Assembly (NCBI GenBank): GCA_964577665.1
Contig: CAZOBD010000004.1
Span: 81-64,080 of the forward strand
DNA from: an uncultured Hyphomicrobiales bacterium
GTDB lineage: Bacteria > Bacteroidota > Ignavibacteria > Kapaibacteriales > UBA2268
Length of the DNA: 64,000 nucleotides
Direction: 5' to 3'
Position numbers and translations under genes: made by a program. The notes beneath the pieces were generated by a model. That model was not told the origin of the DNA and did not search any database. It saw nothing but the letters and a program-made list of their open reading frames with translations. This document shows positions 1,609 to 49,337 of the stretch, in pieces (position 1 is the stretch's first letter; each line of letters begins with the position of its first letter).

Positions 1609-1706
1609 TGTTTTATTTATTTATTCGTAAAATTTAACAAATTACTAAAATATTATTAATTTTGAATAAAATAAATTTCAGAGAAATTTTCGATTTTAAA
1701 GATATT

Positions 1707-17109: not shown

Positions 17110-20100
17110 TTAAATTTTAACAAATTTTAAAACATAATGCCTGCTTTCGTTTGTAACCGTCATATAATAAATACCGGTTGAAAGCAATGATATGTCGATT
17201 TCCCTTGAAATGAAACCTATGTTATGAGTAAATTCCCTTTCCCATTTTGTTTGTCCGAGTACGTCCCGTATTGTAATTAATAACGAAGAATTTGTGTAAA
17301 ATTTATTTTCGTATCTTAGACTAATCAAATCATAAGCTGGATTGGGTGTCAGGCTGAAAATTATTCCTTCAGCTTCTTCTTCTATTGATGAAATAACATC
17401 AAAAGGGTTCGACATAGATGAACAGCCGTATTCATTGAAAATCTCCACGCTGTAATTACCGTATTCTTCTACATTAAAATATCTGCCTTCAGCATCTTCA
17501 ATGACTTCTCCGTCAGAATACCAGATGTGCTTTTCGGCAGGAGGAGCTGTCAATGTTGAACGGTATTGTGAAATTACGGGCTTTTCCGGTACAGGATAAA
17601 ATTCAGCGCTAAAAGGTTCGCTTTCTCCTCTGCATCCGTCGGCTGTAAATCCATAAATTCTGTATATACCCGGTTCTTTTATCCAAATCATTCTGCCGCC
17701 GGAGCCCGTGTTCCAGGTAAGATCTTTAAATCCGAAACCTACCATCAATTTTACGCTGTCGCCTACACATACAGGATAATCACCAATAGGATTAATAACC
17801 AGCTCAGGAACATAATTAGAGCGTACCTTTATTTCTTCTGATCTTGCCCTGCAGCCCTGCTGGTCATAGACCGTAAGATTGTAAGTACCTGACTTTTTTA
17901 CGGTAATGGAACTGCCCGTTTCACCGGTTGACCACTCATAGCGGTAATAACCGTCGGGAGCCTGCAAAATAACACTGTCTCCTTCGCAAAATTCCAATTC
18001 TCCTTTTATTGTAAGCTCGGGCGTTTCAATATCGCAGTTTATTATCTTTGTTTCCCACAATCCTCTGCCGAAAGTTGCCGCCCTGAGTTTTCCGCTGGGA
18101 TAATGTATTTCCAGTTCGTTTACGATCACATTAGGCAGTCCCTTACTAAAGGAAACCCATCCGCCTGTCTCTTCATCCCTGTAAAAAACTCCGATGTCCG
18201 TACCGATAAAAACACGTCCGGGACTGTTTTTCTGATGTATCACACAGTTAACGGGTACATTGGGCAAGGAGCCCGTTATGTTCACAGGGTTTTTATCAAT
18301 TATTTCAATTACTTTATCGTCGGGATTATATCCTGATTGAGAAATCCAGATATGCGACGGATCTTCGGTGTCAACTGATATATATGTTATATATGAAGAA
18401 CTTGTATAAATATTTTCCCATTCTTCGCCCCCGTTTGTCGTTCTCCAAAGTGTACTTCTTGAAGAAGCGTAAATATAATCAGGATTTTTTGAAGATACTG
18501 CTAAAGCGTTCAGCGAGTAACTGCTCCCGAAATTTGATATTTTCTCGGCATTATTCCTGCTTCCGTTTACTTTCCATACATTTCTGTATCCGATATGAAT
18601 AATACCGGGATTTTCCGGGTCAATTACATAAGGTGTAACCCAGCTTCCATATTCATTGGCGTCTGAACTGTTAAAAAAGGAAGAAAAATTATTGCCGCCA
18701 TCTTTGGATTTGTATATATCTCCGTTGTAAAGCGAGCAGTAAACAGTATTTTTATCCGAATAATCAACAAGACATTCCATGCCGTCGCCTCCTCTTACGT
18801 GGAACCAGCCGGGAATGTCTCTTTTTTGAGTGCCGTTGTCCTGACTGCCTCCGAAGACGACCTTAGAGTCTTCTTCCGAACATGCAAGTCTGTAAAACTG
18901 CATGATAGACATACCGTTTGTAATGTCCGTCCAGTTTTTCCCCTCATCGGTTGAGTAGTAAATACCTCCGTCGTTTCCTGCAAAGATAAAACCGTTCAGT
19001 GGATTAAAGATTAAATCGTGCTGATCGGCATGCAGGTAATCTACTCCGTAAGAGCCTGTCCAATGTCCGTTAAGTTTCCATGTGCTTCCTCCGTTAACAG
19101 ATTTCCAGAGATTAATCCCTCCTGCATAGATTTCGTCCTTATCAAAAGGGTTTACAGCAGCGGCTAAATCGTAATTTCCTTGACCGCCCTGATCGCCGCC
19201 GTTTCCGTCTCTGCCTAAAATATTCGGTGAATATGAAACACGCTGCCAGTCCTTTCCTTCGTTTACGGAAACGTAAAAACCTCCGAACCCGTTTGATGAT
19301 GCTTCGGAAACAAGGGCATATACATTTTCGGGAGCGTCGGGGGTTACTTCAAGGACTATTCTGTTTGCATTTGAAAAACTTTTCACTATGTTCCACTTTT
19401 CACCCGTGTCAGTGCTTTTCAAAATAGAGATATTTCCGTTCCTGTTGTAAGTGGAAACATACATAACTTCGGGATTGCCGGGTTTAAACTCCATATCGCG
19501 TGCAAAAAAAGAGGATGAAACCGAATACCAGTTTTCTCCGCCGTCGGTAGTTTTGTAAATGCCATCTCTTGCAGCCGCTATAACCACATCTCCGTTGTCG
19601 GGATGCACAAGAAGCCTGCTTACCAGATGCTGATGAGACATACTTTTGTTCAAAGAAGTTATTTCCCAGCTGCCGCCGCCGTCTGTGGATTTAATAACTC
19701 CTATGCTGTAGTTTCCGGAGCCGTAATAATAGTTCACATCGCCTGTTGCGGCATACACAATATCCGGATTTTTCGGAAAAACGGCTATATCGGAAATACC
19801 AATTGAAAGAAACTGCGTAAAAGGATGTGTTTTCCAGCTCTGCCCGAAGTCTGTTGTTTTCCATATACCGCCGGTTGCCGCACCAACCCAAAAAGTGTTT
19901 TCGTCTGTCGGATGAAAACGAATACAGCTTACTCTTCCCAGTCCTGATGATTCGTAATAAAGCTGATTTTTTGGTACGACCGAGGGGCCTAATTCAATCC
20001 ACTCTGCTTCCATAAGAGGAGAGTCGAAGTTTTGCTGCTTTTCAACGAAAGACTGCATTTCATTATAAATTTTCACGGCATTAGGAAAAGTATCTTTTCC

Positions 20101-20346
20101 GAAAAGGCGCTGCTCCCAAAAATATTCATACCGCTTGAACTGCTTCCAGCCCTGACCGCTCTTTATTTCCCTGCCGTCCCAGTAATCATAAAAAGCTTCT
20201 TGGGATTCACGGAAGCTAATAATCTTATCATTATTAAAATCATACTTATCTGCATTATACAGGAACTGCTGAGGAAATGCCTGCGCTGAAAATACAATAA
20301 AAATAACTGAGATAATAAATCCTCTCGCTGTCGTAACAATGTGCAT
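17110..20346 (-). CDS. Paralog of the upstream BNR/Asp-box beta-propeller T9SS cargo protein
   Basis: 1078 aa; same architecture and shared N-terminal motif GWKQFKRYEYFWEQR; Asp-boxes (TTDFGQSW, STDGGGSW, TTDGGENW, STDTGEKW, STDEGKNW, TTNGGEEW); T9SS CTD (…TPNPAYDLISL…YYMTVTNESRHYVLKFVKI). Confidence 0.7.
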   Translation of the reverse strand: MHIVTTARGFIISVIFIVFSAQAFPQQFLYNADKYDFNNDKIISFRESQEAFYDYWDGREIKSGQGWKQFKRYEYFWEQRLFGKDTFPNAVKIYNEMQSFVEKQQNFDSPLMEAEWIELGPSVVPKNQLYYESSGLGRVSCIRFHPTDENTFWVGAATGGIWKTTDFGQSWKTHPFTQFLSIGISDIAVFPKNPDIVYAATGDVNYYYGSGNYSIGVIKSTDGGGSWEITSLNKSMSHQHLVSRLLVHPDNGDVVIAAARDGIYKTTDGGENWYSVSSSFFARDMEFKPGNPEVMYVSTYNRNGNISILKSTDTGEKWNIVKSFSNANRIVLEVTPDAPENVYALVSEASSNGFGGFYVSVNEGKDWQRVSYSPNILGRDGNGGDQGGQGNYDLAAAVNPFDKDEIYAGGINLWKSVNGGSTWKLNGHWTGSYGVDYLHADQHDLIFNPLNGFIFAGNDGGIYYSTDEGKNWTDITNGMSIMQFYRLACSEEDSKVVFGGSQDNGTQKRDIPGWFHVRGGDGMECLVDYSDKNTVYCSLYNGDIYKSKDGGNNFSSFFNSSDANEYGSWVTPYVIDPENPGIIHIGYRNVWKVNGSRNNAEKISNFGSSYSLNALAVSSKNPDYIYASSRSTLWRTTNGGEEWENIYTSSSYITYISVDTEDPSHIWISQSGYNPDDKVIEIIDKNPVNITGSLPNVPVNCVIHQKNSPGRVFIGTDIGVFYRDEETGGWVSFSKGLPNVIVNELEIHYPSGKLRAATFGRGLWETKIINCDIETPELTIKGELEFCEGDSVILQAPDGYYRYEWSTGETGSSITVKKSGTYNLTVYDQQGCRARSEEIKVRSNYVPELVINPIGDYPVCVGDSVKLMVGFGFKDLTWNTGSGGRMIWIKEPGIYRIYGFTADGCRGESEPFSAEFYPVPEKPVISQYRSTLTAPPAEKHIWYSDGEVIEDAEGRYFNVEEYGNYSVEIFNEYGCSSMSNPFDVISSIEEEAEGIIFSLTPNPAYDLISLRYENKFYTNSSLLITIRDVLGQTKWEREFTHNIGFISREIDISLLSTGIYYMTVTNESRHYVLKFVKI

Positions 20347-22887: not shown

Positions 22888-24255
22888 TTAACCCTCCTTC
22901 ACCACTTTGTAAGTTGTTACATTGCCACCACATATAAGTCTTATAAAGTAAATGCCGTTAGGGTATAAGGAAAGATTAATTGTTAAAGAACTACTGTCTA
23001 TTAAATCTTCCAATAAAATAGTCCCATTGTTATTGATTATTTCATAATATTGATTAGTGCTACTGCAGTTAACTTCAATATTAATTGTTCCATTAGTTGG
23101 ATTGGGATAAAAAGTACTATCAACAATAGAATCATCATTAATGCTACTAGGTTCCCATCGAGCTTTTACAACAGCGCAGATATCATACTTACCCGCTCCA
23201 ATATATTTATTGTTTTTTGAAACATCTAAGGACTTTGCTGAAGTAATAATATTATTGTACTGATATGTAATTATCTCATTTAATATGTCATATACAAATA
23301 CATCTCTATAAGCAGAAATACCAATAACTAAATATCTATCATCAATTGAATATGCAATCGATCTAAAGCAGGTATCTTTTTTAGTTATGGTCTGTTTTAA
23401 TTCTCTTTTTTCAAAATCCCATATTTTTACGGGTCCACCTGCAGATGCCAGATATTTTCCGTCGTGGGAAAAACAGATGTCCCTGATAGCGTAATCGTGT
23501 GTGCCGAGAATACCTTCGTATTTCATTGGGTTTGTATTAAAAATGTGAATTGGGCTATTTGAACCATTTTGATAAAATGTGCTAACAACAAAGTGTTCCT
23601 CGTCAGGTGAGAATTTTATTTTTCCATACTCCGTATCGGTTGATTGATATGCAATTTCATCAGTTCCTAAATCCCAAATACATATTTTACATTTTAATTG
23701 CCCGATACGTGCAACAACAGCTAAGTATTTGCTACTCGGTGAAATATCTATTGATTTAAAGGAAACCGAATCTTCATCAATAGTGAATGTTTTAACTAAT
23801 TTACCTGTTTCCGTTTCAAATAAATATGCAGAGTTATTTTTATAGCTGCCGTCATAATAGTAGAAGTTACCTCCTGCAACTGCAATAATGCTGCCGTCAG
23901 AATTAAAGTCAACACAATTGGTATAATTTGGCTGCTCAAATTCTCTAATCGAGTCTCCTGTCTCAACATCAAAAAGCTTCGGGTTCCTGTAATCAGCCGC
24001 AACCGCAAGATACCTGCTGTCGGGAGAAAACTTTACGCGGTTTATTTGTACACCTAATTCCTTTACCCACAGCACATCGGGGTCATCCTGTGCAAAAGCA
24101 GGAAGAGAAAGAAGAAGTAAAAGCGCCGCCGCCAGAAGAAGGGATGATCCCCCCAGCCCCCTTATAAATAAGAGTGTGTTTGAATTGCTGTGCTCTGATT
24201 TTGTTTTCAGAGCTGCCTTCTCCACCTTTACCAGAAAACTTTTTTTTGTAAACAT
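22888..24255 (-). CDS. WD40-like/beta-propeller repeat protein with T9SS C-terminal sorting domain (paralog A)
   Basis: Repeated …(K)FSPD(S/E)RYLA…/…FSHDGKYLASAGG…KIWDFEKRELK blocks; CTD …FYPNPTNGTINIEV…IYFIRLICGGNVTTYKVVKEG; start placed at MFTKKSF (conserved with paralog B) rather than ORF-track 24285. Confidence 0.6.
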   Translation of the reverse strand: MFTKKSFLVKVEKAALKTKSEHSNSNTLLFIRGLGGSSLLLAAALLLLLSLPAFAQDDPDVLWVKELGVQINRVKFSPDSRYLAVAADYRNPKLFDVETGDSIREFEQPNYTNCVDFNSDGSIIAVAGGNFYYYDGSYKNNSAYLFETETGKLVKTFTIDEDSVSFKSIDISPSSKYLAVVARIGQLKCKICIWDLGTDEIAYQSTDTEYGKIKFSPDEEHFVVSTFYQNGSNSPIHIFNTNPMKYEGILGTHDYAIRDICFSHDGKYLASAGGPVKIWDFEKRELKQTITKKDTCFRSIAYSIDDRYLVIGISAYRDVFVYDILNEIITYQYNNIITSAKSLDVSKNNKYIGAGKYDICAVVKARWEPSSINDDSIVDSTFYPNPTNGTINIEVNCSSTNQYYEIINNNGTILLEDLIDSSSLTINLSLYPNGIYFIRLICGGNVTTYKVVKEG

Positions 24256-24382
24256 AGTTTTTCCTTTTATTTTTTCAAAAAACACACCAATTATAAATAT
24301 AATAAAAAATAAGATAAATAGTTACAAAATAAAAAACATAAAGAATCGTAAAATTATTAAAGCTACAAAATAAGGAATTTTT

Positions 24383-25203: not shown

Positions 25204-26565
25204 TTATCTCTTCACAATAATTTTAATTGTTTTAAAAAAATCGCTGCAAGAAATATTACAGAAGTAAGTGCCTGATGATAATCCGTCTGCATTTATGTTC
25301 ATTGTATTTAAACCTGCTTCAAGATACCCCTCAAATACTTTTTTAACTAATTGACCGTTGATATTATTTAAATCAATATTAGTTATGCCGTTATGTGGAA
25401 GGTTGAAACTTATAACAGCTTCATTTGTTATTGGGTTAGGATAAATAATGCTGTTGTTTTCATTAAAAGGTTCCTCAATAATACTTGGTACCCATTTTGC
25501 ATTTAATAATAATACTCTATATCCATAACCGGAACCAATATATTGATTATCTGATGAAACATCTAACGATAGTGGTGTACCTTTTACAGAATTAAGATGA
25601 TAAACATATTCAGTATTATTTATATCATATATAAAAACATCTCTATAAAATAAAAAACCCATAACAAGAAAATTGTCATCCATAGAATATGCAATCGATC
25701 CAAAGCCGGTATCTTTTTTAGTTATAGTCTGTTTTAATTCTCTTTTTTCAAAATCCCAAATCTTAACATCTCCCGCTGCAGATGCCAGATATTTCCCGTC
25801 GTGGGAAAAACAGATGTCGGCGATAGCATAATCATGTGAGCCGAGAATACCTTCGTTTTTCATTGGGTTTGTAGAAAATACATAGATATAGTTGGTTTTT
25901 GATTCTGGATATGGGTAGGTTTGGCATATAACGAAATGCTGATCATCAGGTGAAAATACAACTTTACTTATATACTGATAATTGCTTTGATATATTATTT
26001 CATTTGAAATTAAATTCCAAATTTTTATTAAATACCTATTTGTTCCACTTTTAAAAACAGCCGCTAATAATTCACCATTGTGTGAAATATCAATTGAAGT
26101 AACATAAACTGAATCTTCATTCAGATCAATTTTTTTTAATTCATCTCCAGTTTCCACACTATATATATTGATGTAATCATTATATCCGGCGCTTGCTAAA
26201 AGAGAGCCGTCATCAGTAAAATCAAGTGTATTTGTTCCTCCACCAATAAATTCTCTAATCAAATCACCTGTTTCTACATCGAAAAGCTTCGGATTCCTGT
26301 AATCAGCCGCAACCGCAAGATACCTGCTGTCGGGAGAAAATTTCACGCAGTTGATTTTCACACCTAATTCCTTTACCCACACCACATCGGGGTCATCCTG
26401 TGCAAAAGCAGGAAGAGAAAGAAGAAGTAAAAGCGCCGCCGCCAGAAGAAGGGATGATCCCCCCAGCCCCCTTATAAATAAGAGTGTGTTTGAATTGCTG
26501 TGCTCTGATTTTGTTTTCAGAGCTGCCTTCTCCACCTTTACCAGAAAACTTTTTTTTGTAAACAT
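25204..26565 (-). CDS. WD40-like/beta-propeller repeat protein with T9SS C-terminal sorting domain (paralog B)
   Basis: First ~75 codons and ~210 bp of 5' region essentially identical at DNA level to paralog A (23975-24262 vs 26275-26572); second near-identical tract 23380-23530 vs 25695-25845; CTD …IYPNPITNEAVISFNL…TYFCNISCSDFFKTIKIIVKR. Confidence 0.6.
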   Translation of the reverse strand: MFTKKSFLVKVEKAALKTKSEHSNSNTLLFIRGLGGSSLLLAAALLLLLSLPAFAQDDPDVVWVKELGVKINCVKFSPDSRYLAVAADYRNPKLFDVETGDLIREFIGGGTNTLDFTDDGSLLASAGYNDYINIYSVETGDELKKIDLNEDSVYVTSIDISHNGELLAAVFKSGTNRYLIKIWNLISNEIIYQSNYQYISKVVFSPDDQHFVICQTYPYPESKTNYIYVFSTNPMKNEGILGSHDYAIADICFSHDGKYLASAAGDVKIWDFEKRELKQTITKKDTGFGSIAYSMDDNFLVMGFLFYRDVFIYDINNTEYVYHLNSVKGTPLSLDVSSDNQYIGSGYGYRVLLLNAKWVPSIIEEPFNENNSIIYPNPITNEAVISFNLPHNGITNIDLNNINGQLVKKVFEGYLEAGLNTMNINADGLSSGTYFCNISCSDFFKTIKIIVKR

Positions 26566-26639
26566 ATAAACCTCCACGGGATAAATTTTCAATTTTGCAA
26601 TTTACAATTTTCAATCAATTTAACAATGATTCAATTTTC

Positions 26640-33300: not shown

Positions 33301-34485
33301 CTATCGGATAATAATAAAACTTTCCCTGACAATAAATCTCTTACAGGAAACACATAAATAATATAATCCTGAGGGTAGATTCGTTATATCCAATTTAATA
33401 TTATCCTGCTTGTAACCCGCATCATGTTTTTTGATGTAAAGCGTTTCTCCTAAATGATTTATTATTTTAACAGAACAAGTTTTTTCAAAAAAAGCAGGCA
33501 ATTTGAAACTTAATTCATCCTCAGCAGGATTTGGAAAAACAATCATTGCTGATTCGGCTGTTTGGTGTTTTAATCCCGAGCCGCTTTCCGTTACAGTAAT
33601 ATTCAAAGAAATTGTGTCATTATCGTTATATTCGTCGGCATTCCCGTTAGGATCGCTTACCCAGAAAGAAATATTATATAATCCTTTTTCGGCAAAATTT
33701 ATTTTTTCAGGTAAATCTATTCTTAACCTGCCGAAAGTTTCAACCTCAAGACCGCTTATTACATGAGAATATATCTGCTGTTCATCATTAATCCGCCAAC
33801 TGATATTGAATTGATTCAGCTTATCAATGCCAAAATTACTAATTTCTATCTGAGCGGTATAATCTCCCGGAGTCAGAAAAGCCGGCAGATTGACATCATC
33901 AAGGGAAATATCATTTTGATGCAGCTCGACTATCTCAATATCATCCAGAAACAGCATCCATCCGTCCCTGCCCACTCCTCTAAATGCAAAATGTATTTCT
34001 TCGCCTGCATAAATACTAAGATCTATCTTTGGATATTCGAAGTTACAAGGGGGGATACTTTCGTAAAGCATCTCGAAATCACATTCTATATCGGCGCCAT
34101 TGTTTGAAACCAAAAATTGATATTTTTCCCAATTATCTTCTTTATTGCTCGAATTTCCTGCCCGCCAGAGAATGTAATTATTTTGAGTAAGCTCTATCTT
34201 CGGAGATATCAGCCAGTCATCAGCCTGCTTTTCAACTTCATATTTGGAAGAAGTAATCACAAAATTGTTATTTGGTTCGTGAGGAATCTCTCCGACAACC
34301 CATGCCTCTTCACTGCCCTTAAAATACTCAAGTACCGAATTATGCCCGTCGTTGTTTATTGTAAGATAAATTGGAGACAAGGTATCTGCCGACTCAAAAT
34401 CTTCATTAAATATCAGTTTTTGTGCTTTAATGTCATGAAAGAAAAGTAAAAACAATACTGAAATGAAAATTAGTTTCATGTTCAT
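33301..34485 (-). CDS. Hypothetical secreted protein with T9SS C-terminal sorting domain
   Basis: Signal peptide MNMKLIFISVLFLLFFHDIKAQ; CTD …VFPNPAEDELSFKLP…YYLCVSCKRFIVRESFIIIR. Confidence 0.5.
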   Translation of the reverse strand: MNMKLIFISVLFLLFFHDIKAQKLIFNEDFESADTLSPIYLTINNDGHNSVLEYFKGSEEAWVVGEIPHEPNNNFVITSSKYEVEKQADDWLISPKIELTQNNYILWRAGNSSNKEDNWEKYQFLVSNNGADIECDFEMLYESIPPCNFEYPKIDLSIYAGEEIHFAFRGVGRDGWMLFLDDIEIVELHQNDISLDDVNLPAFLTPGDYTAQIEISNFGIDKLNQFNISWRINDEQQIYSHVISGLEVETFGRLRIDLPEKINFAEKGLYNISFWVSDPNGNADEYNDNDTISLNITVTESGSGLKHQTAESAMIVFPNPAEDELSFKLPAFFEKTCSVKIINHLGETLYIKKHDAGYKQDNIKLDITNLPSGLYYLCVSCKRFIVRESFIIIR

Positions 34486-34626
34486 TTTCCCGCTGAATGT
34501 CAAAATATAAACGCTGCCCTTAACCAGATACACTCATATTCATTAATTGTTAGCGTAAATATTACAATATTCGGCATTTTAATAGAGCTTATGATATTAA
34601 TATATCATCATTAAGCACAACTTCTC

Positions 34627-37746: not shown

Positions 37747-40700
37747 TTAATAGCCTGCTATTATAAGTTTTTTACTTAAACTGCCGCTTTTTGTTTTCAG
37801 AACTGCTATGTAAACTCCGTCGGACAAATGGGATAAATCTGTCTGAAAAGTATTGAATCCGGCTTTGGAGTAATGATTTTCCAATAAAGTTGAAACTTTA
37901 TTACCAATAGTATTAAACAACTCTAAAGTTATTTCGCCCGGAGAGGGCAGATAATACTGCATAGAAACTATGTTTTCTGCCGGATTGGGATACATCTCAA
38001 ATTTAATATTACTGTCGAAAAATTGGTTTATTCCTGAAACCTCTCCGTCCAGCACTGCAAGGTAACTTCCGAGTCCGTTCATAATAGTGCTTACGTAGTT
38101 TCCCGCAGTATCTACCCTGCCGCCTAAATTTTCCCATGCTCTTTTACCGGTATTCCACATAAAAACACATATATTTTCTTCATTTTTATCATCAGGTATG
38201 ATATCGTCATATTTAATCTTGATGATATTTTTTCCGGTTAAACCGTTCATAGAAAGCGGGAATGCAGAAATGGAATATAAAGGGCTGACTTTCAGAAAAC
38301 CATCGTTGAAACCTTCGGGAATTGTCGAAAATTGGGATGATGCAATACCGAATTTGTCAATCACTTTATTTTCACTGCTTATGTAAAGAGTGCATAAACC
38401 GCTGTTTTCAAATATTTTCTGCTGCTTCGGATAAAATCCGTAATCAAACGGAACTTTAAACTCGTTCTCCTCGTTGTCTTTTGCGCTGATGAACATTTTT
38501 CCTTCATCCATATAATTTTTATTCACCTCGGCGGTATAATAGTTTTCCTTTTGGGCAGCCATTTTTATGTCAAAGGAAGATTTTTCCAAGACAGAAGTAA
38601 GAGTTCCGCCGCCGGGGTACATATTCTCCATATAAAAATCAATGATCAGGGAGCCGTCTGCCTGAATATCCCACTGGGGCACTATTCCGAATTCCCCGGC
38701 AACTTTTTTCAATGTCTGTTTCTTCTCTAAAATTTGATTATCTTTTTTCATTTTACTTACAGCATCAATGTAAAGGGTTGAAAATTCATCTTCACCCGTC
38801 CATGGGTTCTGGTATAAAACCCATATTACATCGCCGATGGCAGCGCCGACCACTTTTATTTTGCCGTCTTCTCTTGTTTTACCCTGATCCTTGAAAAGAG
38901 CTTCGCTGTCGCTAATCATTTTTACATGAGAGACCATTGCTCTGTGTGCGAGAGAGCCTGATTCACTATAAATTGTAAGGTCTAAATCACCCGTTTCAAC
39001 ATCATCAATAAAATCGTGAATTTCAAAATCGAGAAGATGGTCAACTTCAAAACCGTATCCTCTTGATGATCTTCCGTCTCCGGGTCCCCTTTCGGGAGCA
39101 CTTCTGCCGTCTTCTTCGGGAGTTCTTATGGGGCAGGGTATCCCCTCGTAAGTTCCTTCCCGCTCCTGATTCCACTGCGACCAGCAGTCCATTCCGTTTA
39201 CCGACCATTGCTCGGTTATTTTATATGAGTTATCGGGATAGCGGTCGGGGGTGGACATTTCGCTGCTCCAATTGTCGCAATAGCTTCTGTCGCAGTCCAT
39301 AAAGCCGAAATTGTAATGCCTGAACACTGAATTCCCCTCATCATCTTCATATTCGTCTTTGAATCCCATCATGTAATGTCCCAGCTCATGCCCTATCATT
39401 CTGGGATTTTCCGGAGCATCTCGGAGGTACCAGTCATCTTCAGATAAAATGTAAATGGTATTTGCTTTGCTGTCAAAAAATCTTCTCGGAAGATGAACAT
39501 GACCTTCATCAGGATCAAAAATACCGTTTACCCGGGCGCAGGGCCATTGTGTGTTGTTTGCATAAAATCTAATGTCACAGTCGTCCCAGTGCTGTTTATT
39601 ATCGTAAACGACCACTTTGTTGAAAAAAAGATGTCCGTCGGTTACATCAAAAAGATAGTTCGATGCATCTTTGAACCAGTCCTCTATAGCCTCAAGCACT
39701 TCCCTTTTGGCATCCCACTCGACGGATACAATCAAATTATACTCGTAAGTTCCTGAAATCATATAAATATCCTGAGGTCTGTCTTCATAGTAAATATGAT
39801 AGAAGGGAATAGATTTGCGAAAATCAAGATTATTCAAAGAAACTTTGTACATAACATTGTCAACGGCTGAATGTCCCGGTTTGGCAGCGGGTTCCTCATG
39901 CAGGTACTCATCCAGATATATCCTCAGAAAATGCCCCCGTTCAATATCACTTTTCCTGAGAGCAAAAGCACCCTCGCTGCTTGTATAATATTCGCCAAGA
40001 TATTCCTGAGGAAATCCATAATGAATATGTTTCCAAACTCTGAAAGGTCTGCCGGGTATCCTGATGCTGTCTATATCATGGATACGTATTGACCAGAACA
40101 TATCGGAAAAAGGGGCAGCCGCAGCCAATAGACCCGACTGCGTAGAAATCAATATTCTTTCTATATCAATAAACATATCGCTGATGTCTGCATTAATGCC
40201 TGAGTTGTCGGCATCTATCCAGCTTGCGCCATACTTAGAATGAGACACTTTGTCTTTCCCGAAAGCATACAATCCTTTATCTTTCTTAAATGTTATCTTC
40301 TTCAGTCCTGCGTCTTTATTGCCCGTAAGAGAAATTTTACCGTCCTTAATTTTGTAAACACCCTTGTCTGAAGCCGCAAACAAAGCATCATCAGATTCTG
40401 TTATGTCTTTAAAGACGGCATCTTCTTCGGTAAATTCTTCATACCAGCTCTTCCCGCCGGATTCACCCTGATATAATCCTTTTTTTCCGACGGGTACTGC
40501 CCAGATTATATCTTTCTTATCAACGAAAATCTTTTCAAAATTGTTAGACCAAGTATTTATTTCCTGCCATTTTGCTCCATTGTCCATACTGTAGAAAAGT
40601 TTGTTCATTTTGGCATCTTCAAGCAAAGCATAAATGTATCCTTTTGAATCTTTATCCAATGAGATATATTTGTGATAATCCTTCCTGATGTTTTTCCAAA

Positions 40701-42051
40701 CCATATCCTTTTCATCGTATTTGTATAATCCCCGGTTCGTGCCGGCAAAAAATCCCGGATTGTCGTAAGATTTGAAAAACTGGACTGATATATCGCTCTT
40801 TATCTCTTCGCCGAATGTTTTTGGAAGCGAGCTCTGCCATGAAATTCCGCCGTCTTCAGACTTGAAAATGCCGTCCATGTTTTTAAAGCCGGCATAAATA
40901 ATGTCTTTATAAACAGCGACGGCGCTCAGGTTGTCATTTGCAATACAGCGGTTAATAATGCTCCACCCTGCACCTTTACTGTCAGAAAAGATAATGCCTC
41001 TTTTTTCTTCGGGGCAGGCTGCTATGCTATTATCATCATCCGCTGAAAAATTATTTTCGTTCAATTCAAAATCCGCGGTTTTCTTCCATGATTTCCCAAA
41101 ATCATCACTGTATTGAGTCTCTCCCCCTTTACTCATAAAAATATCGTTGTTTCCAAGCATAAAGGCATAATTAATTTCTTCCTGTCCTCCATAAACTATC
41201 CTTCTGTCAGCTCCGCCGTTTAAGGAAAGTATTAACATTCTGCCGTTAGACCCCTTTTGCAGATAAAACAGATTTCCGAAGCGGTAAAAGATTTTTTCAA
41301 AAATATCTCCGCCCTGAGTTTGATAGACAATTTCCCAGTTTTGTTTCTGCGGATTGTACTTCACGTGTTTAGATGAAATTTTTTCAGTGAGCTTGTATTC
41401 CGAAAAGATGAGATGAGCAGCTTTTTTTTCATCAAGGTAGAAAAAATCGGCTTTTTGAAGTTTTTCAGCTTCCCACAGTTTATTCCATTTTTTTCCTTCG
41501 TTTCCGGAATGAGCAAGTTCATTAACGGCACATACGAATAAATCCGAACCCGAAACTTCCATTCCAAGTATTTCCAGACGGTTGAAATATATCTCCGTCC
41601 AGCTTTTGCCTGAGTCTTCAGTTTTATAAACATACCAGCCCCTAATATTGGGGTTAATATTATTATCAAAAACGATGATATAAAAAACACTGCTGTTTTG
41701 AAAAATCAGGTCTTTAACATCATCACCATAAATCTGAGTCCATTTTTGCCCGTTTTCCGATGAAAGATACGGTATGATTTTTCCATCTTTATTTTTTATA
41801 CCACACACAACCGTTTCGTCCTTACCCCAGAATTTCATCACCGCTCCGGGCAGACCTCCAAGTAAAATATCCCAATGAGGTTTCCCCTCGGCTTTTTTGC
41901 AAATCTCGCCTTTTGCTGTGCCTGCAAATAAACCTTTATGAAATTGAACTGACGTAAAATTTCCTTTTACGCCCGGCTTTTGCCAAGTGTCCTCAGCCTG
42001 TGAAAATGAAAAGATAATCAAAAAGAGAGTAAAAGAAGTAAAGATTTTCAT
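37747..42051 (-). CDS. Giant secreted T9SS cargo protein: N-terminal BNR/Asp-box beta-propeller region, central HEXXH zinc-metalloprotease-like domain, C-terminal T9SS sorting domain
   Basis: 1434 aa; signal peptide; Asp-boxes (TEDSGKSW, SDDFGKSW, SEDGGISW, SMDNGAKW); zinc-binding-type motif RMIGHELGHYMMGFKDEYEDD; CTD …MYPNPAENIVSMQYYL…VYIAVLKTKSGSLSKKLIIAGY. Confidence 0.65.
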   Translation of the reverse strand: MKIFTSFTLFLIIFSFSQAEDTWQKPGVKGNFTSVQFHKGLFAGTAKGEICKKAEGKPHWDILLGGLPGAVMKFWGKDETVVCGIKNKDGKIIPYLSSENGQKWTQIYGDDVKDLIFQNSSVFYIIVFDNNINPNIRGWYVYKTEDSGKSWTEIYFNRLEILGMEVSGSDLFVCAVNELAHSGNEGKKWNKLWEAEKLQKADFFYLDEKKAAHLIFSEYKLTEKISSKHVKYNPQKQNWEIVYQTQGGDIFEKIFYRFGNLFYLQKGSNGRMLILSLNGGADRRIVYGGQEEINYAFMLGNNDIFMSKGGETQYSDDFGKSWKKTADFELNENNFSADDDNSIAACPEEKRGIIFSDSKGAGWSIINRCIANDNLSAVAVYKDIIYAGFKNMDGIFKSEDGGISWQSSLPKTFGEEIKSDISVQFFKSYDNPGFFAGTNRGLYKYDEKDMVWKNIRKDYHKYISLDKDSKGYIYALLEDAKMNKLFYSMDNGAKWQEINTWSNNFEKIFVDKKDIIWAVPVGKKGLYQGESGGKSWYEEFTEEDAVFKDITESDDALFAASDKGVYKIKDGKISLTGNKDAGLKKITFKKDKGLYAFGKDKVSHSKYGASWIDADNSGINADISDMFIDIERILISTQSGLLAAAAPFSDMFWSIRIHDIDSIRIPGRPFRVWKHIHYGFPQEYLGEYYTSSEGAFALRKSDIERGHFLRIYLDEYLHEEPAAKPGHSAVDNVMYKVSLNNLDFRKSIPFYHIYYEDRPQDIYMISGTYEYNLIVSVEWDAKREVLEAIEDWFKDASNYLFDVTDGHLFFNKVVVYDNKQHWDDCDIRFYANNTQWPCARVNGIFDPDEGHVHLPRRFFDSKANTIYILSEDDWYLRDAPENPRMIGHELGHYMMGFKDEYEDDEGNSVFRHYNFGFMDCDRSYCDNWSSEMSTPDRYPDNSYKITEQWSVNGMDCWSQWNQEREGTYEGIPCPIRTPEEDGRSAPERGPGDGRSSRGYGFEVDHLLDFEIHDFIDDVETGDLDLTIYSESGSLAHRAMVSHVKMISDSEALFKDQGKTREDGKIKVVGAAIGDVIWVLYQNPWTGEDEFSTLYIDAVSKMKKDNQILEKKQTLKKVAGEFGIVPQWDIQADGSLIIDFYMENMYPGGGTLTSVLEKSSFDIKMAAQKENYYTAEVNKNYMDEGKMFISAKDNEENEFKVPFDYGFYPKQQKIFENSGLCTLYISSENKVIDKFGIASSQFSTIPEGFNDGFLKVSPLYSISAFPLSMNGLTGKNIIKIKYDDIIPDDKNEENICVFMWNTGKRAWENLGGRVDTAGNYVSTIMNGLGSYLAVLDGEVSGINQFFDSNIKFEMYPNPAENIVSMQYYLPSPGEITLELFNTIGNKVSTLLENHYSKAGFNTFQTDLSHLSDGVYIAVLKTKSGSLSKKLIIAGY

Positions 42052-42857
42052 GGCAGTCTCCCCGTTGTATATAAAAGGAACAATTAAAATGCAGCTTATT
42101 TCTCTTGGTCAGTCTTTTTTTTCAAGAAGTTTGCAATTGTGATTTTCTTATTTCAAAAATTTTTATTATTCAAAATTTGAGTTTTATAATTTGCAAAAGA
42201 AATCTAAGATTTACAAAATTATTTTCAGATGAATCAAATATTTCACTCACCTTTACAAGTAAACAAGATATAAATGAGACTTGTGAAAAATCAATATTTT
42301 TTCTAAGATTTGAGATTCCTTTAAAGACAGGAATCTAAATAATGTTTGATAAAATCTACTTGAGATTCCGCAATAAGATTCCTCTGATGAATACAGCAGC
42401 TTCTTTTGTCTCTCCGGCAAGCTGCCGGCTATTCCGAACATTTTTACCAGCAGATGACTCTTGTTTGGTCTGTACATTTTTTACTGATTTTTTTGCGTAA
42501 CAGTTTAACCCTTGGAATATTTCTGATTTACGAAAATGTTATTCTTTTTTATAATTATCCAATATTTTATATTACCTTTTAAAGTGAACTCATTATTAAA
42601 ATAAAATAACGAGTCATGCTGTGTTGAATTAAAGCCAATAAATTAAAAAAATTCGCAGAATTGTGAAAATTGCATAAATTACTGAATAATGTTCAAATTA
42701 GGCTTTAGAATGTAAATTTTTTCGATAGTTATATTGAGATTATTTTTCTTTTTTCATTTTTTTTCTTAATTTAATTAAGGATTCAATACTAAAATATATT
42801 TGGAGGCAGAATAAGCATAAATACCGAATTTTTCTAATGACTTTTTAAGGAATAATT

Positions 42858-45572
42858 ATGCGTTTACTTTCTGCAGGTATTTTGCTTCTTTTTGCATTTC
42901 TTCCAATGCAAAGCGAAAATGTTTTCAATTCTTTCTTAGGAAATTACAACTCACATACTCTTGAATCACAAAAATTGATACTCCACTGCCAGGGCGGACG
43001 TATTGAACTTACTCCCTTTACTGAGGAGATTATAAAAGTGGAGGTTTTTGAGGATGCAGATACCCAGAAGAGGCGTTCTTTTGCTGTTTTCCGCAATCCT
43101 GAAAAAGTCCAGACTAAACTTACAAATAATCCTGATTTTCTTGTTTATTCATCAGGCACAATAAAGACAATGATTCGAAAATATCCATTAAAGCTTTCTT
43201 TCATCAAAGACGGAGATACGCTTCTTAAGGAAAAATTCGGTACATATCACATGGGCTGGGGTTTCGGAAACACTTTTGAAAAAGAACCCGGCGAAATGTT
43301 CTTCGGCACTGGAGAGCGCGCTCTGCCGCAGGATAGAAACAATTATTTTTTAAGAAACAATAACTCCCACAGATTCAGATATACATGTGATCACGGCTGG
43401 ATGTCCATAGGAATACCATTCTACATATCCTCAAAAATGTATGGTTTATTTATGGACAATCATGAAGTAGGGATTATGGACTTTGGAACTGTATTTCAGG
43501 ATGCTGTAATAATTAATGCTTACAGCAATCATTTAAGATATTATGTAATATTTGGAGATTCATACGGTGATATTCTAAAAAGATACACTAAGCTCACCGG
43601 ATTCCAGAGATTTTTGCCAAGATGGGCTTTAGGCTATATGCAGTCAAGAATGATATATTTTACTTCAGACCAAACAAGAGAAATAGTAAGCAACATGCAA
43701 AATGATAGTATTCCTTTAGATGTAATATTGCTTGATGTCGGTTGGTTCGGAGCGCATGACAGTCTTGGAAGTAATACATGGAAAGGCGGATTTCAAGACG
43801 GCACTGTCCTTGTTGATGACTTATTAAAAAAATCAATAAAAACAATTCCAATTTTTAATCCTTACTTTTTAGTCAATAATGAAAATTTTGACAAAGGGAT
43901 GGAATATGATTGTTTTGTTAAAAATGAGAATGATATGCCATATGAAATTGATATTCTTGAAAAGCCCAGCGTTTTAGCAGATGTTTCTCATCCTGCCTCT
44001 GAAGAATTTTTATGGAACTTATATGATCCATTGGTCAGAGACGGTATTGCCGGATTTTGGCTTGACTATGGAGAGCCTCAGCACCACGAAGAAGATATGA
44101 AACATTATTTAGGCAGCGCTGCATATGTTCACAACATTTTCAATCTTTTTTGGATGAAAATGATTTTTAAGAAATCTAAAGAAATTTATCCTGATAAAAG
44201 AATGTTAATGATTTCCAGATCAGGATGGGTTGGAATGGGAAAATATGGTGTCTGCAATTGGTCTGGCGATGTTGACAGATCATATCTTGGAATGAAATTT
44301 CAAATTCCCTTAATGATTGGAGCCGGCATAAGCGGTGTACCTTATTTACATTCTGACATCGGCGGCTTCTCCGGTTCTCCTTCTTTTCCCATAAGATTTA
44401 TTCGATGGATGCAGTTAGGAGCTTTCTCACCGATAATGCGTACTCATAATGCGGAAATTCCTGCAGAACCATTCAGATATGAAGAACCCTACAAAAGCAT
44501 TCTTAGAAAATTCATTAACCTGAGGTATAAGTTAATTCCTTATAATTATACACTTATGTGGGAGAACCACAAAACGGGTATCCCTTTAATGAGGCAGATG
44601 GACTTTTATGAAAATGACAATCCGAATCTCTATAGAATTGATGATCAATATTTTTGGGGGGAGAATTTTATTTCGGCACCGGTGATAGATTCTCTGGCTT
44701 TAGAGAGAAATGTAATACTACCCGAAGGCAGGTGGTTTTCTTACTGGGATCACAGCATATATGACGGAAGCGCAACTGTTACTGTTCCTGCTCCCCTGGA
44801 TGAAATGCCTCTGCTGGTTCGCTCGGGAAGCATAATTCCGACAGCTCCGGTTTATCAGTCTTTAGATTATTACAACAGCGACAGTTTAATTGTAGAGTAC
44901 TATTATGACGAAAAGGTATCATCCTCTTCGTTTTCGATGTACAACGACGACGGCATAACCGACGAAGCATATAAGCGCAGCCGGTACGAAGTCATCGAGT
45001 TCAAAGCTGATAATTCACAAAAAGGAATAAATTTCAATATCGATTCCAAGGGTCCCGGTTTTCAAACAAAACCATTTATAAGAGGGATGCTGATTAAAAT
45101 GATAAATGTTACAAAGGATCAGTATTCGATAGAGCTGAACGGAAGTTCTTTGAAATTTTATTCAAATAAAGATGATTTTACTCAAAATGACTCGTGTGTA
45201 TGGTGGGACCGTAAGAATTCAATTCTTTACGTCAAATTCACGTGGAGAAATGATCCATCCTCAATTGAAGTAACTTACGGCACAAGCAGTGTTTCTTCAT
45301 TTGAAGGAAAATGCAAATTACTTGATAACCCCTATCCCAATCCATTTTCAAAAACTGTTTTCATAACTGTAAACATAAAAAAATCCGGTATTTATAAGCT
45401 GCGAGTTTTCGATGTTAACGGCAAATCAGTATTTGAACAAAACAACTATTATCTACCGGGAAAATACGTAACTGCATGGAGTCCTGATGAAATCTCTACG
45501 GGTTTATATAAAGCAGTAATCTCTTCCGAAGAAATTTTGGAAAACAGAAATCTGATTTTTATTAATGAATAA
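42858..45572 (+). CDS. Glycoside hydrolase family 31 (alpha-glucosidase/alpha-xylosidase-like) with T9SS C-terminal sorting domain
   Basis: 904 aa; signal peptide; GH31 nucleophile region GFWLDYGEP (cf. WIDMNE) and acid/base region CNWSGDVDRSY (cf. HWTGDV); CTD …NPYPNPFSKTVFITVNIK…. Confidence 0.75.
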   Translation: MRLLSAGILLLFAFLPMQSENVFNSFLGNYNSHTLESQKLILHCQGGRIELTPFTEEIIKVEVFEDADTQKRRSFAVFRNPEKVQTKLTNNPDFLVYSSGTIKTMIRKYPLKLSFIKDGDTLLKEKFGTYHMGWGFGNTFEKEPGEMFFGTGERALPQDRNNYFLRNNNSHRFRYTCDHGWMSIGIPFYISSKMYGLFMDNHEVGIMDFGTVFQDAVIINAYSNHLRYYVIFGDSYGDILKRYTKLTGFQRFLPRWALGYMQSRMIYFTSDQTREIVSNMQNDSIPLDVILLDVGWFGAHDSLGSNTWKGGFQDGTVLVDDLLKKSIKTIPIFNPYFLVNNENFDKGMEYDCFVKNENDMPYEIDILEKPSVLADVSHPASEEFLWNLYDPLVRDGIAGFWLDYGEPQHHEEDMKHYLGSAAYVHNIFNLFWMKMIFKKSKEIYPDKRMLMISRSGWVGMGKYGVCNWSGDVDRSYLGMKFQIPLMIGAGISGVPYLHSDIGGFSGSPSFPIRFIRWMQLGAFSPIMRTHNAEIPAEPFRYEEPYKSILRKFINLRYKLIPYNYTLMWENHKTGIPLMRQMDFYENDNPNLYRIDDQYFWGENFISAPVIDSLALERNVILPEGRWFSYWDHSIYDGSATVTVPAPLDEMPLLVRSGSIIPTAPVYQSLDYYNSDSLIVEYYYDEKVSSSSFSMYNDDGITDEAYKRSRYEVIEFKADNSQKGINFNIDSKGPGFQTKPFIRGMLIKMINVTKDQYSIELNGSSLKFYSNKDDFTQNDSCVWWDRKNSILYVKFTWRNDPSSIEVTYGTSSVSSFEGKCKLLDNPYPNPFSKTVFITVNIKKSGIYKLRVFDVNGKSVFEQNNYYLPGKYVTAWSPDEISTGLYKAVISSEEILENRNLIFINE

Positions 45573-45681: not shown

Positions 45682-46983
45682 ATGAAAGCAGAGAAACTCG
45701 AACTGCCCCTGCTGCAGGACGCAAACATCAAAGGAAAAACAATTCTGATGAGAGTTGACCACAACGTGGTTAAAAAAGGCGAGATAATAGACCCTTACCG
45801 AATAGATGCCACAATCGGCACAATTTTCCACATATATGCCCGCGGCGGTAAAGTCATTCTTATGACTCATGTAGGAAGACCCCGCAATAAAAAAACCGGT
45901 GAGATAAAAATATCCGATCATACTTCCATTGAGCCTATTGTTGAATACTTGAACAAAAAACTCAATATAAATCTTGTTGCTGCTGAACCGGGAGAATATG
46001 GCAGCGAAGGTATTGAGCATCTCGATGATTCAATTAAAACACTTCTAAGGGATATGGATGAAGGGACAATTGACGGCATCTATCTGCCAAATACCCGCTG
46101 GTTCAAAGGCGAGGAAAGCAAGGATGATGCGGCTCAAAAATTTGCAGAAGAGCTTGCAGAACTTGCCGATATTTATGTAAATGACGCCTTTGGAAGCTGG
46201 CAGCCACATGTATCAACTTATCATATTGCAAAACAGCTTCCATCATACGCAGGACATTTAATGCAGAAAGAATTAATCAACTTAGAAAGAATATACGATC
46301 CGAAAAAACCTTTCATTGCAGTTGTAGCCGGTTCAAAATTTGACACAAAAATAGATTCACTTTATGAATTGATAAAAAAAGCCGATAAGCTTATTCTCGG
46401 CGGGGTTATGTATAATGCCTGGCTTTCCGCAAAGTACAACTTCGACATAAAAGGCATTAGCGACGAAGATATGAAACATGCGCGGGATTTCGTAGAGTTT
46501 TCCAAAAAATACGAAGGCAAACTTATTGAATTGCCATATATCGTTGAGTCCGATACACTCGAAGGAAAATTTGAAGGAAAGCACAGAACACACAATATAA
46601 AAGAACTCAAGCCCGGCACTAAATTAAATTATGTCTTAGATGTAGCGCCGGAGTCTTTCGACAATGAGGAAATAAAAGATGTTTTCCATGAAGCAAAAAC
46701 CGTTTTTGTCAATGCGGTAATGGGATTCACCCCGCACTTTAACGAGGGAACAATAGCTCTCGACCAGACCATTGACGAAAACCGAGAAGCATCAAAACTA
46801 TATGGCGGCGGCGACACCATGCAGGAGCTGAAAAGATTGCTGCCGGGGCTTTACATTGTTGCCATTGACAGCCCGAAATATTATATATTTACAGGAGGCG
46901 GTGCAGTTCTCCGCGCTATCCAAGACGGAACATATCTCGGCTTGGAACCGGTAAAAGCTTTACATGAGCAGTATTCCAAATAA
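45682..46983 (+). CDS. Divergent phosphoglycerate kinase-like paralog
   Basis: 433 aa; PGK-like blocks with substitutions (RVDHNVV vs RVDFNVP; MTHVGRP vs SHLGRP; C-terminal GGGDTMQEL vs GGGDSAAA); AGGAG RBS 6 bp upstream. Confidence 0.6.
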   Translation: MKAEKLELPLLQDANIKGKTILMRVDHNVVKKGEIIDPYRIDATIGTIFHIYARGGKVILMTHVGRPRNKKTGEIKISDHTSIEPIVEYLNKKLNINLVAAEPGEYGSEGIEHLDDSIKTLLRDMDEGTIDGIYLPNTRWFKGEESKDDAAQKFAEELAELADIYVNDAFGSWQPHVSTYHIAKQLPSYAGHLMQKELINLERIYDPKKPFIAVVAGSKFDTKIDSLYELIKKADKLILGGVMYNAWLSAKYNFDIKGISDEDMKHARDFVEFSKKYEGKLIELPYIVESDTLEGKFEGKHRTHNIKELKPGTKLNYVLDVAPESFDNEEIKDVFHEAKTVFVNAVMGFTPHFNEGTIALDQTIDENREASKLYGGGDTMQELKRLLPGLYIVAIDSPKYYIFTGGGAVLRAIQDGTYLGLEPVKALHEQYSK

Positions 46984-47017
46984 GTATTTGTAATTGTTTA
47001 ATCATTGGAGCAGATAT

Positions 47018-48205
47018 ATGCAGAGTATGGACAATGGAAATTTTAAATTCAAACATGTATTAATCCGCGTGGATTTCAATGTTCCCTTAGATTCAAAGCT
47101 AAACGTTGTAGATGATATGAGAATTACCGAATCTCTTCCATCCATAGACCAGATAATTGATGACGGAGGCATTCCCATAATTATATCCCATCTCGGGAGG
47201 CCCGGAGGAAGTCAGGAGAGAAAGTTCTCATTAGCTCCCGTTGCCAAGTATATGCATCAAAAATGGGGCTACAATGTAATTTTTGCCGAAGACTGCATAG
47301 GTCATCATCCTGAAAGAGCAGTTCAGCAGGCAAAACCCGGGGATGTAGTATTATGTGAAAATTTACGTTTCCATGAAGGAGAAAAGAAAAACGATATCGA
47401 ATTCGCAAAGCAGCTTGCAAAGCTCGGAGACTGTTACGTAAATGATGCTTTCGGTACTGTTCATCGCTATCATGCCAGCATACATGCACTACCGGGGCTT
47501 TTTGAAAAGAGATATATGGGCAAATCCGTGCAGTTTGAACTTGAATACTTAAAAAACGCTTTAAACAATCCTGCTTCTCCTTATGTAGCCGTTATAGGCG
47601 GAGCTAAAATCTCAGGAAAAATTGAAGTTATCCGCACTCTTATCGATCAATGCGACAAAGTACTTATTGGCGGCGGCATGATATTCACCTTTTTTAAAGC
47701 CATGGGTTATAATATCGGCAGATCAATTTTTGAAGAAGATAAAATATCTCTTGCTAAAGAACTAATAGAGCTATCAAACGAAAAAGGCAAGTCACTGATG
47801 CTTCCCGAGGATATTGTAATTGCCGATAATTTTTCTCCCGATGCCGAAGACCAGACCGTTGCCGTGGATCAAATCCCATCGGACTGGATGGGAATGGACT
47901 TAGGTGATAACACAATAAATAAATATAAAGAAGTCATCTTAAATGCCAACACAATCACATGGAACGGACCCATGGGTGTTTTTGAATTCAGAAAATTTGC
48001 CCGCGGCACAAAACAAATAGGCAATGCCCTTGCAAACGCAACTTCAAAAGGCGCAATAACCATTCTCGGCGGCGGTGATTCCGCTGCGGCAATGAAAAAA
48101 ATGCACCTTATTAACAAGGTAACGCATCTGTGCCCCGGAGGAGGAGCTTGGCTGAAATATATGGAAGGCGGAGAACTCCCCGGAATAGAGGCTTTGAAAA
48201 AATAA
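47018..48205 (+). CDS. pgk: Phosphoglycerate kinase
   Basis: Canonical PGK blocks (LIRVDFNVPLD, ISHLGRPGG, …ILGGGDSAAAMKK…); ATG at 47018 with GGAG RBS preferred over TTG at 46994. Confidence 0.85.
   Translation: MQSMDNGNFKFKHVLIRVDFNVPLDSKLNVVDDMRITESLPSIDQIIDDGGIPIIISHLGRPGGSQERKFSLAPVAKYMHQKWGYNVIFAEDCIGHHPERAVQQAKPGDVVLCENLRFHEGEKKNDIEFAKQLAKLGDCYVNDAFGTVHRYHASIHALPGLFEKRYMGKSVQFELEYLKNALNNPASPYVAVIGGAKISGKIEVIRTLIDQCDKVLIGGGMIFTFFKAMGYNIGRSIFEEDKISLAKELIELSNEKGKSLMLPEDIVIADNFSPDAEDQTVAVDQIPSDWMGMDLGDNTINKYKEVILNANTITWNGPMGVFEFRKFARGTKQIGNALANATSKGAITILGGGDSAAAMKKMHLINKVTHLCPGGGAWLKYMEGGELPGIEALKK

Positions 48206-48278: not shown

Positions 48279-49337
<1,059 letters not shown>

Follow-up and report, generated by a model that had tools for sequence, protein, structure and literature searches.

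What kind of protein is encoded by a long open reading frame in which a single HEXXH site is followed closely by acidic residues, in a spacing that matches neither thermolysin nor the textbook metzincins? The question is raised by a gene at positions 37747-42051 (minus strand) of a 64,000-nucleotide stretch of contig CAZOBD010000004.1 (assembly GCA_964577665.1), which comes from an uncultured bacterium placed in the Kapaibacteriales. This whole stretch is referred to here as the window. The gene product is probably a zinc endopeptidase of the metzincin clan, modular in build and either extracellular or attached to the cell surface. The protein is best described as belonging to an unnamed metzincin family that is igalysin/CLCAsin-like at the zinc site, i.e. 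a family-level variant of a known clan.

The zinc site and the catalytic domain

The open reading frame and the features that bear directly on the zinc site are the following (aa, amino acids; A1, an alignment of 24 sequences of the family):
37747..42051, minus strand: whole open reading frame, with an ATG start and 1,434 aa plus the stop codon
39097..39756, minus strand: predicted metzincin-type catalytic domain, residues 766-985, from the AlphaFold2 (AF2) fold, an M64 profile match and a CLCA_N match below cutoff
39349..39390, minus strand: putative zinc-binding motif HELGHYMMGFKDEY, residues 888-901, which matches the published igalysin/CLCAsin pattern
39298..39300, minus strand: M918, candidate Met-turn methionine in a conserved 'YGFMD', invariant in A1 and in a coil, modelled with confidence, that lies past D899 and ahead of the C-terminal helix
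39184..39186, minus strand: C956, nearly invariant (at least 90% of A1), at the start of the C-terminal helix ('DCW') and adjoining the invariant W957

A first-pass annotation, made from the sequence alone, had proposed the 1,434 aa reading frame, and the open reading frame call on the minus strand agrees with it. The same protein, identical, is also called on a separately assembled 5.9-kb Logan contig (run SRR7048225). Thus it is improbable that the long fusion was created by one assembler.

The only HEXXH in the protein is found at H888, in the context RMIGHELGHYMMGFKDEYEDD. The segment HELGHYMMGFKDEY, which runs from H888 through H892, G896, D899 and E900 to Y901, fits HEXXHXXXGXXDEY at every position. 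With shuffled composition the chance expectation is 0.034 for a bare HEXXH and approximately 2e-6 for HExxHxxxGxxDE[YFW]. The segment shows the igalysin zinc motif, HEXXHXXXGXXD with Asp as the third ligand and then Glu and Tyr (PMC12237041). The CLCA consensus is HExxHxxxGxxDEY, and its likeness to the M64 site was pointed out by Lenart et al. 2013 (PMC3650047). Structures reported in 2025 place the igalysins (M64) and CLCA1 among the metzincins, with an additional residue ahead of the glycine; Asp serves as the third zinc ligand (D550 in IgAse, D167 in CLCA1), the Tyr adjoins the metal, and the intervening Glu is on a second zinc (PMC12237041; bioRxiv 10.1101/2025.10.18.683246).

As read from the sequence, the zinc site is the igalysin/CLCAsin variant of the metzincin motif, and represents no new clan and no new catalytic principle. 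By analogy the acidic residue is likely to be the third zinc ligand. The first-pass annotation had seen a HEXXH with an acidic cluster in the central region, and had judged it neither thermolysin-type nor a canonical metzincin HEXXHXXGXXH; both observations hold, the cluster being D899-E900 after H888. Its further suggestion of an aspzincin-like site or a new clan does not, as the motif is the pattern published for M64 igalysins and CLCAsins in the three sources cited above. An aspzincin of the M35 deuterolysin type, which combines HEXXH with a distant GTXDXXYG on a separate helix in a deuterolysin-like fold, was considered as a candidate and rejected; that arrangement is not found here.

AF2 was applied to residues 699-1089 with A1 as the alignment and gave a mean predicted local distance difference test (pLDDT) score of 88 and a predicted template modelling (pTM) score of 0.89. 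In the residue numbers of the model, N-terminal strands are followed by a long strand (68-79), a backing helix (85-105) and three more strands. The active-site helix (183-197) holds H190, E191 and H194, which correspond to H888, E889 and H892, and ends at G198 (G896) with D201 (D899) next. After the active site there is a coil with M220 (M918), then short helices and a final helix (258-266) that starts at C956-W957. The model displays the twisted beta-sheet, backing helix, active-site helix and C-terminal helix of the metzincin fold. In it the HEXXH helix also terminates in a Gly turn that leads to D899, with a spacing one residue longer, as in igalysins and CLCAsins. As for the Met-turn, the candidate is M918, which is invariant and is placed by the model in a confidently predicted coil ahead of the C-terminal helix. 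Thus two of the three metzincin clan features tested are found in the model. The first-pass annotation had itself named a HEXXH in a beta-strand lacking a nearby third ligand as grounds for giving up its protease reading; the modelled HEXXH is alpha-helical (183-197), with D899 just past the glycine that ends the helix.

By analogy with igalysins and CLCA1, the catalytic zinc would be held by H888, H892 and D899, and E889 would be the general base that activates the water. Y901 would stand beside the metal as a transition-state helper, G896 would provide the turn ending the active-site helix, and M918 would form the Met-turn under the zinc site. E900 is proposed as the family-specific residue. 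As a conjecture, it may hold a second, structural metal, perhaps with C956; to place C956 and E900 together in such a site is speculation.

A Foldseek search with the catalytic model gives no match at E <=1e-3, and the leading matches are all metzincins. The values listed under the catalytic-model structure are 9.4 for ADAMTS-5, 9.3 for ADAM17, 8.8 for Atrolysin C, 8.2 for Ulilysin, 8.0 for CpaA, 7.5 for InhA2 and also for Mirolysin, 6.6 for Archaemetzincin, 6.1 for Amuc_1438, 5.9 for IgA protease and 5.8 for BF3526. Judged by the model, the overall fold appears about equally distant from all solved metzincin families.

Family members and the constant cassette

The catalytic domain is recognised by no Pfam or NCBIfam model, and single-sequence searches of the PDB with the whole protein, the centre, the N-terminus and the C-terminal module return only noise. 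In word-indexed searches the whole protein finds itself and propeller or C-terminal sorting domain (CTD) matches only, the central region (38752-40134, minus strand) finds nothing, the query's own entry included, and the family profile finds only 4 proteins. When residues 640-1100 are searched exhaustively with HMMER, against 1.84 billion cluster representatives (50% identity), the result is 1,244 relatives at E <=1e-3, 422 at <=1e-10 and 99 at <=1e-30, and the best relative other than the protein itself has E = 2e-70 and 35% identity. Thus the apparent orphan status reflects a limit of the word-indexed search. The one relative with a name is publicly called merely "T9SS type A sorting domain-containing protein" (T9SS, type IX secretion system).

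Among the 149 best relatives, 146 keep the HEXXH and 94 the full HExxHxxxGxxDE[YFW]; nearly all others differ at the glycine only. Residues H888, E889, G891, H892, D899, E900, Y901, M918 and W957 are invariant in A1, and at least 90% of its sequences share C956, E931 and S933. The motif is also kept at every one of 80 genomic loci in GTDB species representatives.

More than 100 of the 149 relatives share the conserved stretch, which begins near residue 700 and reaches the C-terminus; practically none of the 149 aligns with residues 1-330. At the 80 loci, the motif is 510-604 aa from the end of the open reading frame in all cases where the fetched contig includes that end (here, 546 aa), and the part before the motif ranges from ~145 to ~1,370 aa. 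The N-terminal modules in sampled relatives include MAM with Big_5, and FG-GAP with a beta-helix. Eight relatives were scanned for domains: seven show a Por_Secre_tail match above cutoff, the eighth has a CTD-like C-terminus with CHU_C/FlgD_ig matches, and the core is covered by no model. By sequence comparison, a cassette of ~730 aa, consisting of the catalytic domain, a beta-sandwich, a ~250-aa module and the CTD, appears constant, and the N-terminal modules appear interchangeable. The first-pass annotation had called the fusion of a propeller and a protease on one T9SS substrate unusual. Within the family it is not: in the 149 relatives the module from protease to CTD is constant and the N-terminus varies, and ~12 of the closest carry a propeller.

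Hosts are uncultured Kapaibacteria, Ignavibacteria, Zixibacteria, Calditrichota, Rhodothermia and other metagenome-assembled genomes (MAGs) of the Fibrobacterota-Chlorobiota-Bacteroidota (FCB) group, often with several paralogs per genome. Two protease-family paralogs are found in tandem on JBAXXL010000031.1 (4831-8187 and 8518-11850), and several MAGs carry three or more unlinked copies. Together these point to lineage-specific expansion. No paralog of the protease module is found among the other large open reading frames of the window (1662-5015, 13725-17009, 17110-20346 and others), which show no HEXXH and no similarity. A conserved partner gene, such as a chaperone or inhibitor, was sought beside family members at the 80 loci and none was found; the largest neighbour cluster (18 loci) looks like other large secreted proteins.

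Propellers, export and neighbouring genes

The remaining features of the protein, from the N-terminus, are:
41995..42051, minus strand: predicted Sec signal peptide, residues 1-19 (MKIFTSFTLFLIIFSFSQA), in which S-Q-A comes after a hydrophobic core
41053..41994, minus strand: Asp-box region I, residues 20-333, with motifs at 97, 144, 182 and 315; absent from the nearest relatives
40132..41052, minus strand: predicted beta-propeller II, residues 334-640, seven-bladed and Asp-box/Sortilin-Vps10-like, with motifs at 356, 398, 488, 529 and 604
39757..40131, minus strand: pre-catalytic beta-rich segment, residues 641-765, with strands at model residues 10-56 and pLDDT up to 97; conserved in relatives from ~650-700 on
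38812..39036, minus strand: predicted beta-sandwich after the catalytic domain, residues 1006-1080, with strands at model residues 310-381 and pLDDT 90-96
38017..38784, minus strand: conserved C-terminal module, residues 1090-1345, across which more than 100 of 149 relatives align
37759..37995, minus strand: T9SS type-A CTD, residues 1353-1431, with PF18962 and TIGR04183 both above cutoff

Three strict SxDxGxxW motifs are found, at residues 315, 398 and 488, along with five relaxed Asp-box motifs at 97, 144, 182, 356 and 529, plus HSKYGASW at 604. Shuffling of the N-terminal 645 aa gives a mean of 0.14 relaxed motifs, and none of 5,000 shuffles reaches 8. All nine GxxW motifs of the protein fall before residue 612. 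Asp-box repeats had been placed by the first-pass annotation in the N-terminal ~550 aa. The repeats are real (8-9, residues 97-611), and it is their extent that needs correction, to ~640 residues.

An AF2 model of residues 20-645, built on a shallow alignment of 16 sequences, has an overall pLDDT of 61, with residues ~350-580 all-beta at pLDDT 80-90. The NCBIfam F510_1955, Pfam Sortilin-Vps10 and HVO_0234 models match propeller II below threshold. The evidence for a BNR/Asp-box propeller is thus the repeated motifs together with the confident all-beta model of residues ~350-580, with Pfam BNR/Sortilin below cutoff and the first half of the region without a confident model. On the modelling, a single seven-bladed Asp-box propeller at residues 334-640 is well supported. 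Region I, to which Pfam Sortilin-Vps10 and BNR give sub-threshold matches only, is probably a first, divergent beta-propeller. Proteins that match the whole protein in the word-indexed search carry Sortilin-Vps10, BNR and PSII_BNR domains. The ~12 relatives noted above, of ~1,100 aa, have a ~300-aa N-terminal domain homologous to residues ~330-640 here, and the extra N-terminal stretch of ~310 aa is the one feature specific to this protein. As a conjecture, the N-terminal modules (the propeller and the second Asp-box region) most likely bind or position a substrate, perhaps glycosylated or polymeric.

Downstream of the catalytic domain, the beta-sandwich at residues 1006-1080 resembles transthyretin or carboxypeptidase-regulatory domains (family profile on 2gpz, E = 0.14). 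Residues 1090-1345 show no Pfam match and no PDB sequence match.

The protein has both marks of T9SS type-A cargo, a Sec signal peptide at the N-terminus, read from the sequence, and Por_Secre_tail/TIGR04183 at the C-terminus. Signal peptide cleavage would occur after MKIFTSFTLFLIIFSFSQA and before ED. Pfam PF18962 matches residues 1353-1431 with E = 2.5e-11 (44.2 bits, cutoff 27), and NCBIfam TIGR04183 matches the CTD with E = 1.6e-10 (40.8 bits, cutoff 23), in agreement with the Por CTD that the first-pass annotation had placed downstream. By comparison with the established T9SS of Bacteroidota, the Sec signal peptide would direct the protein to the periplasm. The type-A CTD would then be recognised by the T9SS, the outer membrane crossed and the CTD cut off, and the mature protein would be released or anchored at the surface. 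Genes for the T9SS machinery, for which no search was made, are absent from the window.

At least 8 type-A CTD proteins are encoded in the 64-kb window, and other fusions of a propeller with a CTD are among them, of both the Sortilin/BNR and the WD40 type. Thus propeller-bearing T9SS cargo appears routine in this genome. The tandem proteins at 13725-17009 and 17110-20346 (both minus strand) are ~1,090 aa in length and display Sortilin-Vps10/PSII_BNR Asp-box propellers with T9SS CTDs. Two paralogous proteins of ~460 aa, at 22888-24285 and 25204-26592 (both minus strand), consist of a WD40-type beta-propeller and a Por_Secre_tail CTD (PF18962, E = 7e-11 and 4e-10). WD40 propellers are uncommon in secreted bacterial proteins. 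An Omp28-domain protein with a CTD is found at 10405-12549 (plus strand), and at 33301-34533 (minus strand) there is a 410-aa protein in which the CTD is the one recognisable domain.

The protease gene is separated from a divergent gene for a glycoside hydrolase family 31 (GH31) glycosidase (42858-45572, plus strand) by an intergenic region of ~800 bp (42052-42857) of low G+C, the bin at 42001-44000 having ~32% G+C. The C-terminus of the GH31 protein looks CTD-like by eye, with no Pfam CTD match at 1e-5. A promoter and terminator scan around the protease gene gave counts at or below those of shuffled sequence, for a sigma-70 consensus, with Bacteroidota-type promoters outside the scan. Further away, tandem phosphoglycerate kinase genes (45682-46983 and 46994-48205, plus strand) are situated directly upstream of the GAPDH gene (48339-49337, plus strand). 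The first of the two kinases is the more divergent (433 aa, 282 bits versus 477 bits for the second). Tandem duplication of such a glycolytic gene is unusual. The open reading frame at 1662-5015 (plus strand), with an annotated TTG start, encodes a hybrid sensor of 1,117 aa that contains receiver, several PAS, HisKA_3 and HATPase domains.

Known metalloprotease families, other readings and significance

The best PDB matches of the family profile are the M64 IgA proteases (9ekk, E = 1.4e-3), over only ~49 residues around the zinc helix. In Pfam scans of 24 members the commonest weak matches are CLCA_N (6 of 24) and M64 (3 of 24), none of which reaches cutoff. For the protein itself, CLCA_N (PF08434) is the sole protease model to match; it aligns residues 782-906 with model positions 22-150 and scores 18.7 bits with the whole protein and 22.0 bits with the isolated domain, against a cutoff of 25.6. 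The M64 model (PF09471) has no match at E <=1 in this protein, and the best among the three members that match has E = 0.0081.

The igalysins, which include the Thomasclavelia ramosa IgA protease and Bacteroides BF3526/BACOVA_00663 (PDB 9ekk, 9qdh, 4df9, 3p1v), have the same zinc motif HEXXHXXXGXXDEY. They also share with this protein the metzincin fold and a bacterial, secreted, multi-domain organisation with a beta-domain after the catalytic domain. However, their structural zinc, held by the motif Glu and three Cys, one in a C-x-M Met-turn and two in the C-terminal helix (PMC12237041), is not conserved, and M918 stands in G-F-M, which has no Cys. Asp and Met are spaced by 19 residues in this protein versus 58 in IgAse (PMC12237041), and unlike the igalysins this protein would be exported by the T9SS. 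The CLCAsins (PF08434, M87) have the identical consensus, and the CLCA_N alignment extends beyond the motif. However, the CLCAsin architecture is a metallohydrolase followed by VWA, BSR and FnIII, and neither VWA nor any other CLCA domain is found here or in the 8 relatives scanned. Neither the second zinc site of CLCA1 (Cys187/Cys250/His255) nor the very large distance from Asp to Met in that protein (D167 to M238) has a counterpart here, and CLCAs are mostly eukaryotic. The bacterial CLCA_X family was considered as well and rejected, its consensus HExxHxxxD (PMC3650047) not fitting the site. Adamalysins/ADAMTS and pappalysins (ulilysin, mirolysin, cytophagalysin) have HEXXHXXGXXH, or N for the G, with His as third ligand and no extra residue; they share only 11-15% identity with this protein and give no sequence-level match. 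The O-glycopeptidase metzincins Amuc_1438, OgpA and CpaA show weak similarity, no Foldseek match at E <=1e-3, and different zinc motifs.

The identical zinc motif, the M64 IgA proteases as best PDB matches and CLCA_N as the commonest weak Pfam match would also be expected of a true M64 igalysin or CLCA/M87 protein that has diverged too far to be recognised. This is very improbable: all 24 members scanned stay below the Pfam cutoffs of both families, the PDB match is confined to the zinc helix, the three structural-zinc cysteines are absent, that of the C-x-M Met-turn included, and so are VWA and the other CLCA domains. A gluzincin-like site is also unlikely. Here the third ligand would be E931, in a conserved 'SEMS' helix 39 residues past H892, in the style of thermolysin, and D899-E900-Y901 would have some other role. 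E931 and S933, found in at least 90% of A1, lie in or beside a short helix (model residues 229-232), but some members have F or L instead of the SEMS methionine. Moreover D899 is invariant and placed exactly as the zinc-binding Asp of the igalysin/CLCA1 motifs, the invariant M918 suits a Met-turn, and the fold matches also speak against a gluzincin.

There is similarly little chance that the protein is mainly carbohydrate-active, with the Asp-box regions forming a GH74-like or sialidase-like glycosidase to which the metzincin module is an accessory. The NCBIfam 'F510_1955 family glycosylhydrolase' model does match residues 431-597, and the divergent neighbour gene encodes the GH31 glycosidase, but the model scores 72.6 bits against a cutoff of 175 and the PDB sequence search gives no significant glycosidase match. 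Relatives, moreover, exchange the N-terminal module for unrelated binding domains and keep the protease cassette constant. CLCA-like families commonly have substitutions in the HEXXH (PMC3650047), and the protein could on that account be an inactive pseudo-protease, acting at the cell surface as an adhesin or a scaffold for binding. This seems highly doubtful, since the HEXXH is intact here as well as in the 146 relatives, and D899, E900, Y901 and M918 are invariant in A1, which is the pattern expected under selection for catalysis.

Some points weigh against an active metzincin endopeptidase of the kind proposed. The first ~310 residues are poorly modelled by AF2 (pLDDT 30-70), the igalysin structural-zinc cysteines are not conserved, with C956 alone nearly invariant, and neither a pro-domain nor a mechanism of latency was found. 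Such an endopeptidase is still the probable identity of the gene product. Its likely role would be extracellular breakdown of protein or glycoprotein for nutrition in an uncultured FCB-group bacterium, the substrate being conjecture.

More tentatively, the ~730-aa cassette may define a new metzincin family outside Pfam and NCBIfam, perhaps a prokaryotic, FCB-group sister of the igalysins and the eukaryotic CLCAsins. The proposed family has their unusual HEXXHXXXGXXDEY site but differs in that Asp and Met lie close together, and its second-metal site would be either different or missing. If this is right, the family would probably merit its own entry in MEROPS and would bear on the disputed origin of the CLCAs. 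It would also be a large natural library in which one protease cassette is combined with interchangeable targeting modules.

What is new here lies at the level of the family, a large set of predicted T9SS-exported metzincins, which comprises no fewer than 1,244 clusters at 50% identity and is absent from Pfam and NCBIfam. The family would add a bacterial relative for comparison with the recently solved structures of IgA proteases and CLCA1. The exchange of N-terminal modules may be viewed as a natural experiment in the retargeting of one protease cassette. The uncultured bacteria of the FCB group are important degraders in sediments and soils, and their extracellular proteolysis would be better annotated once the family is recognised.

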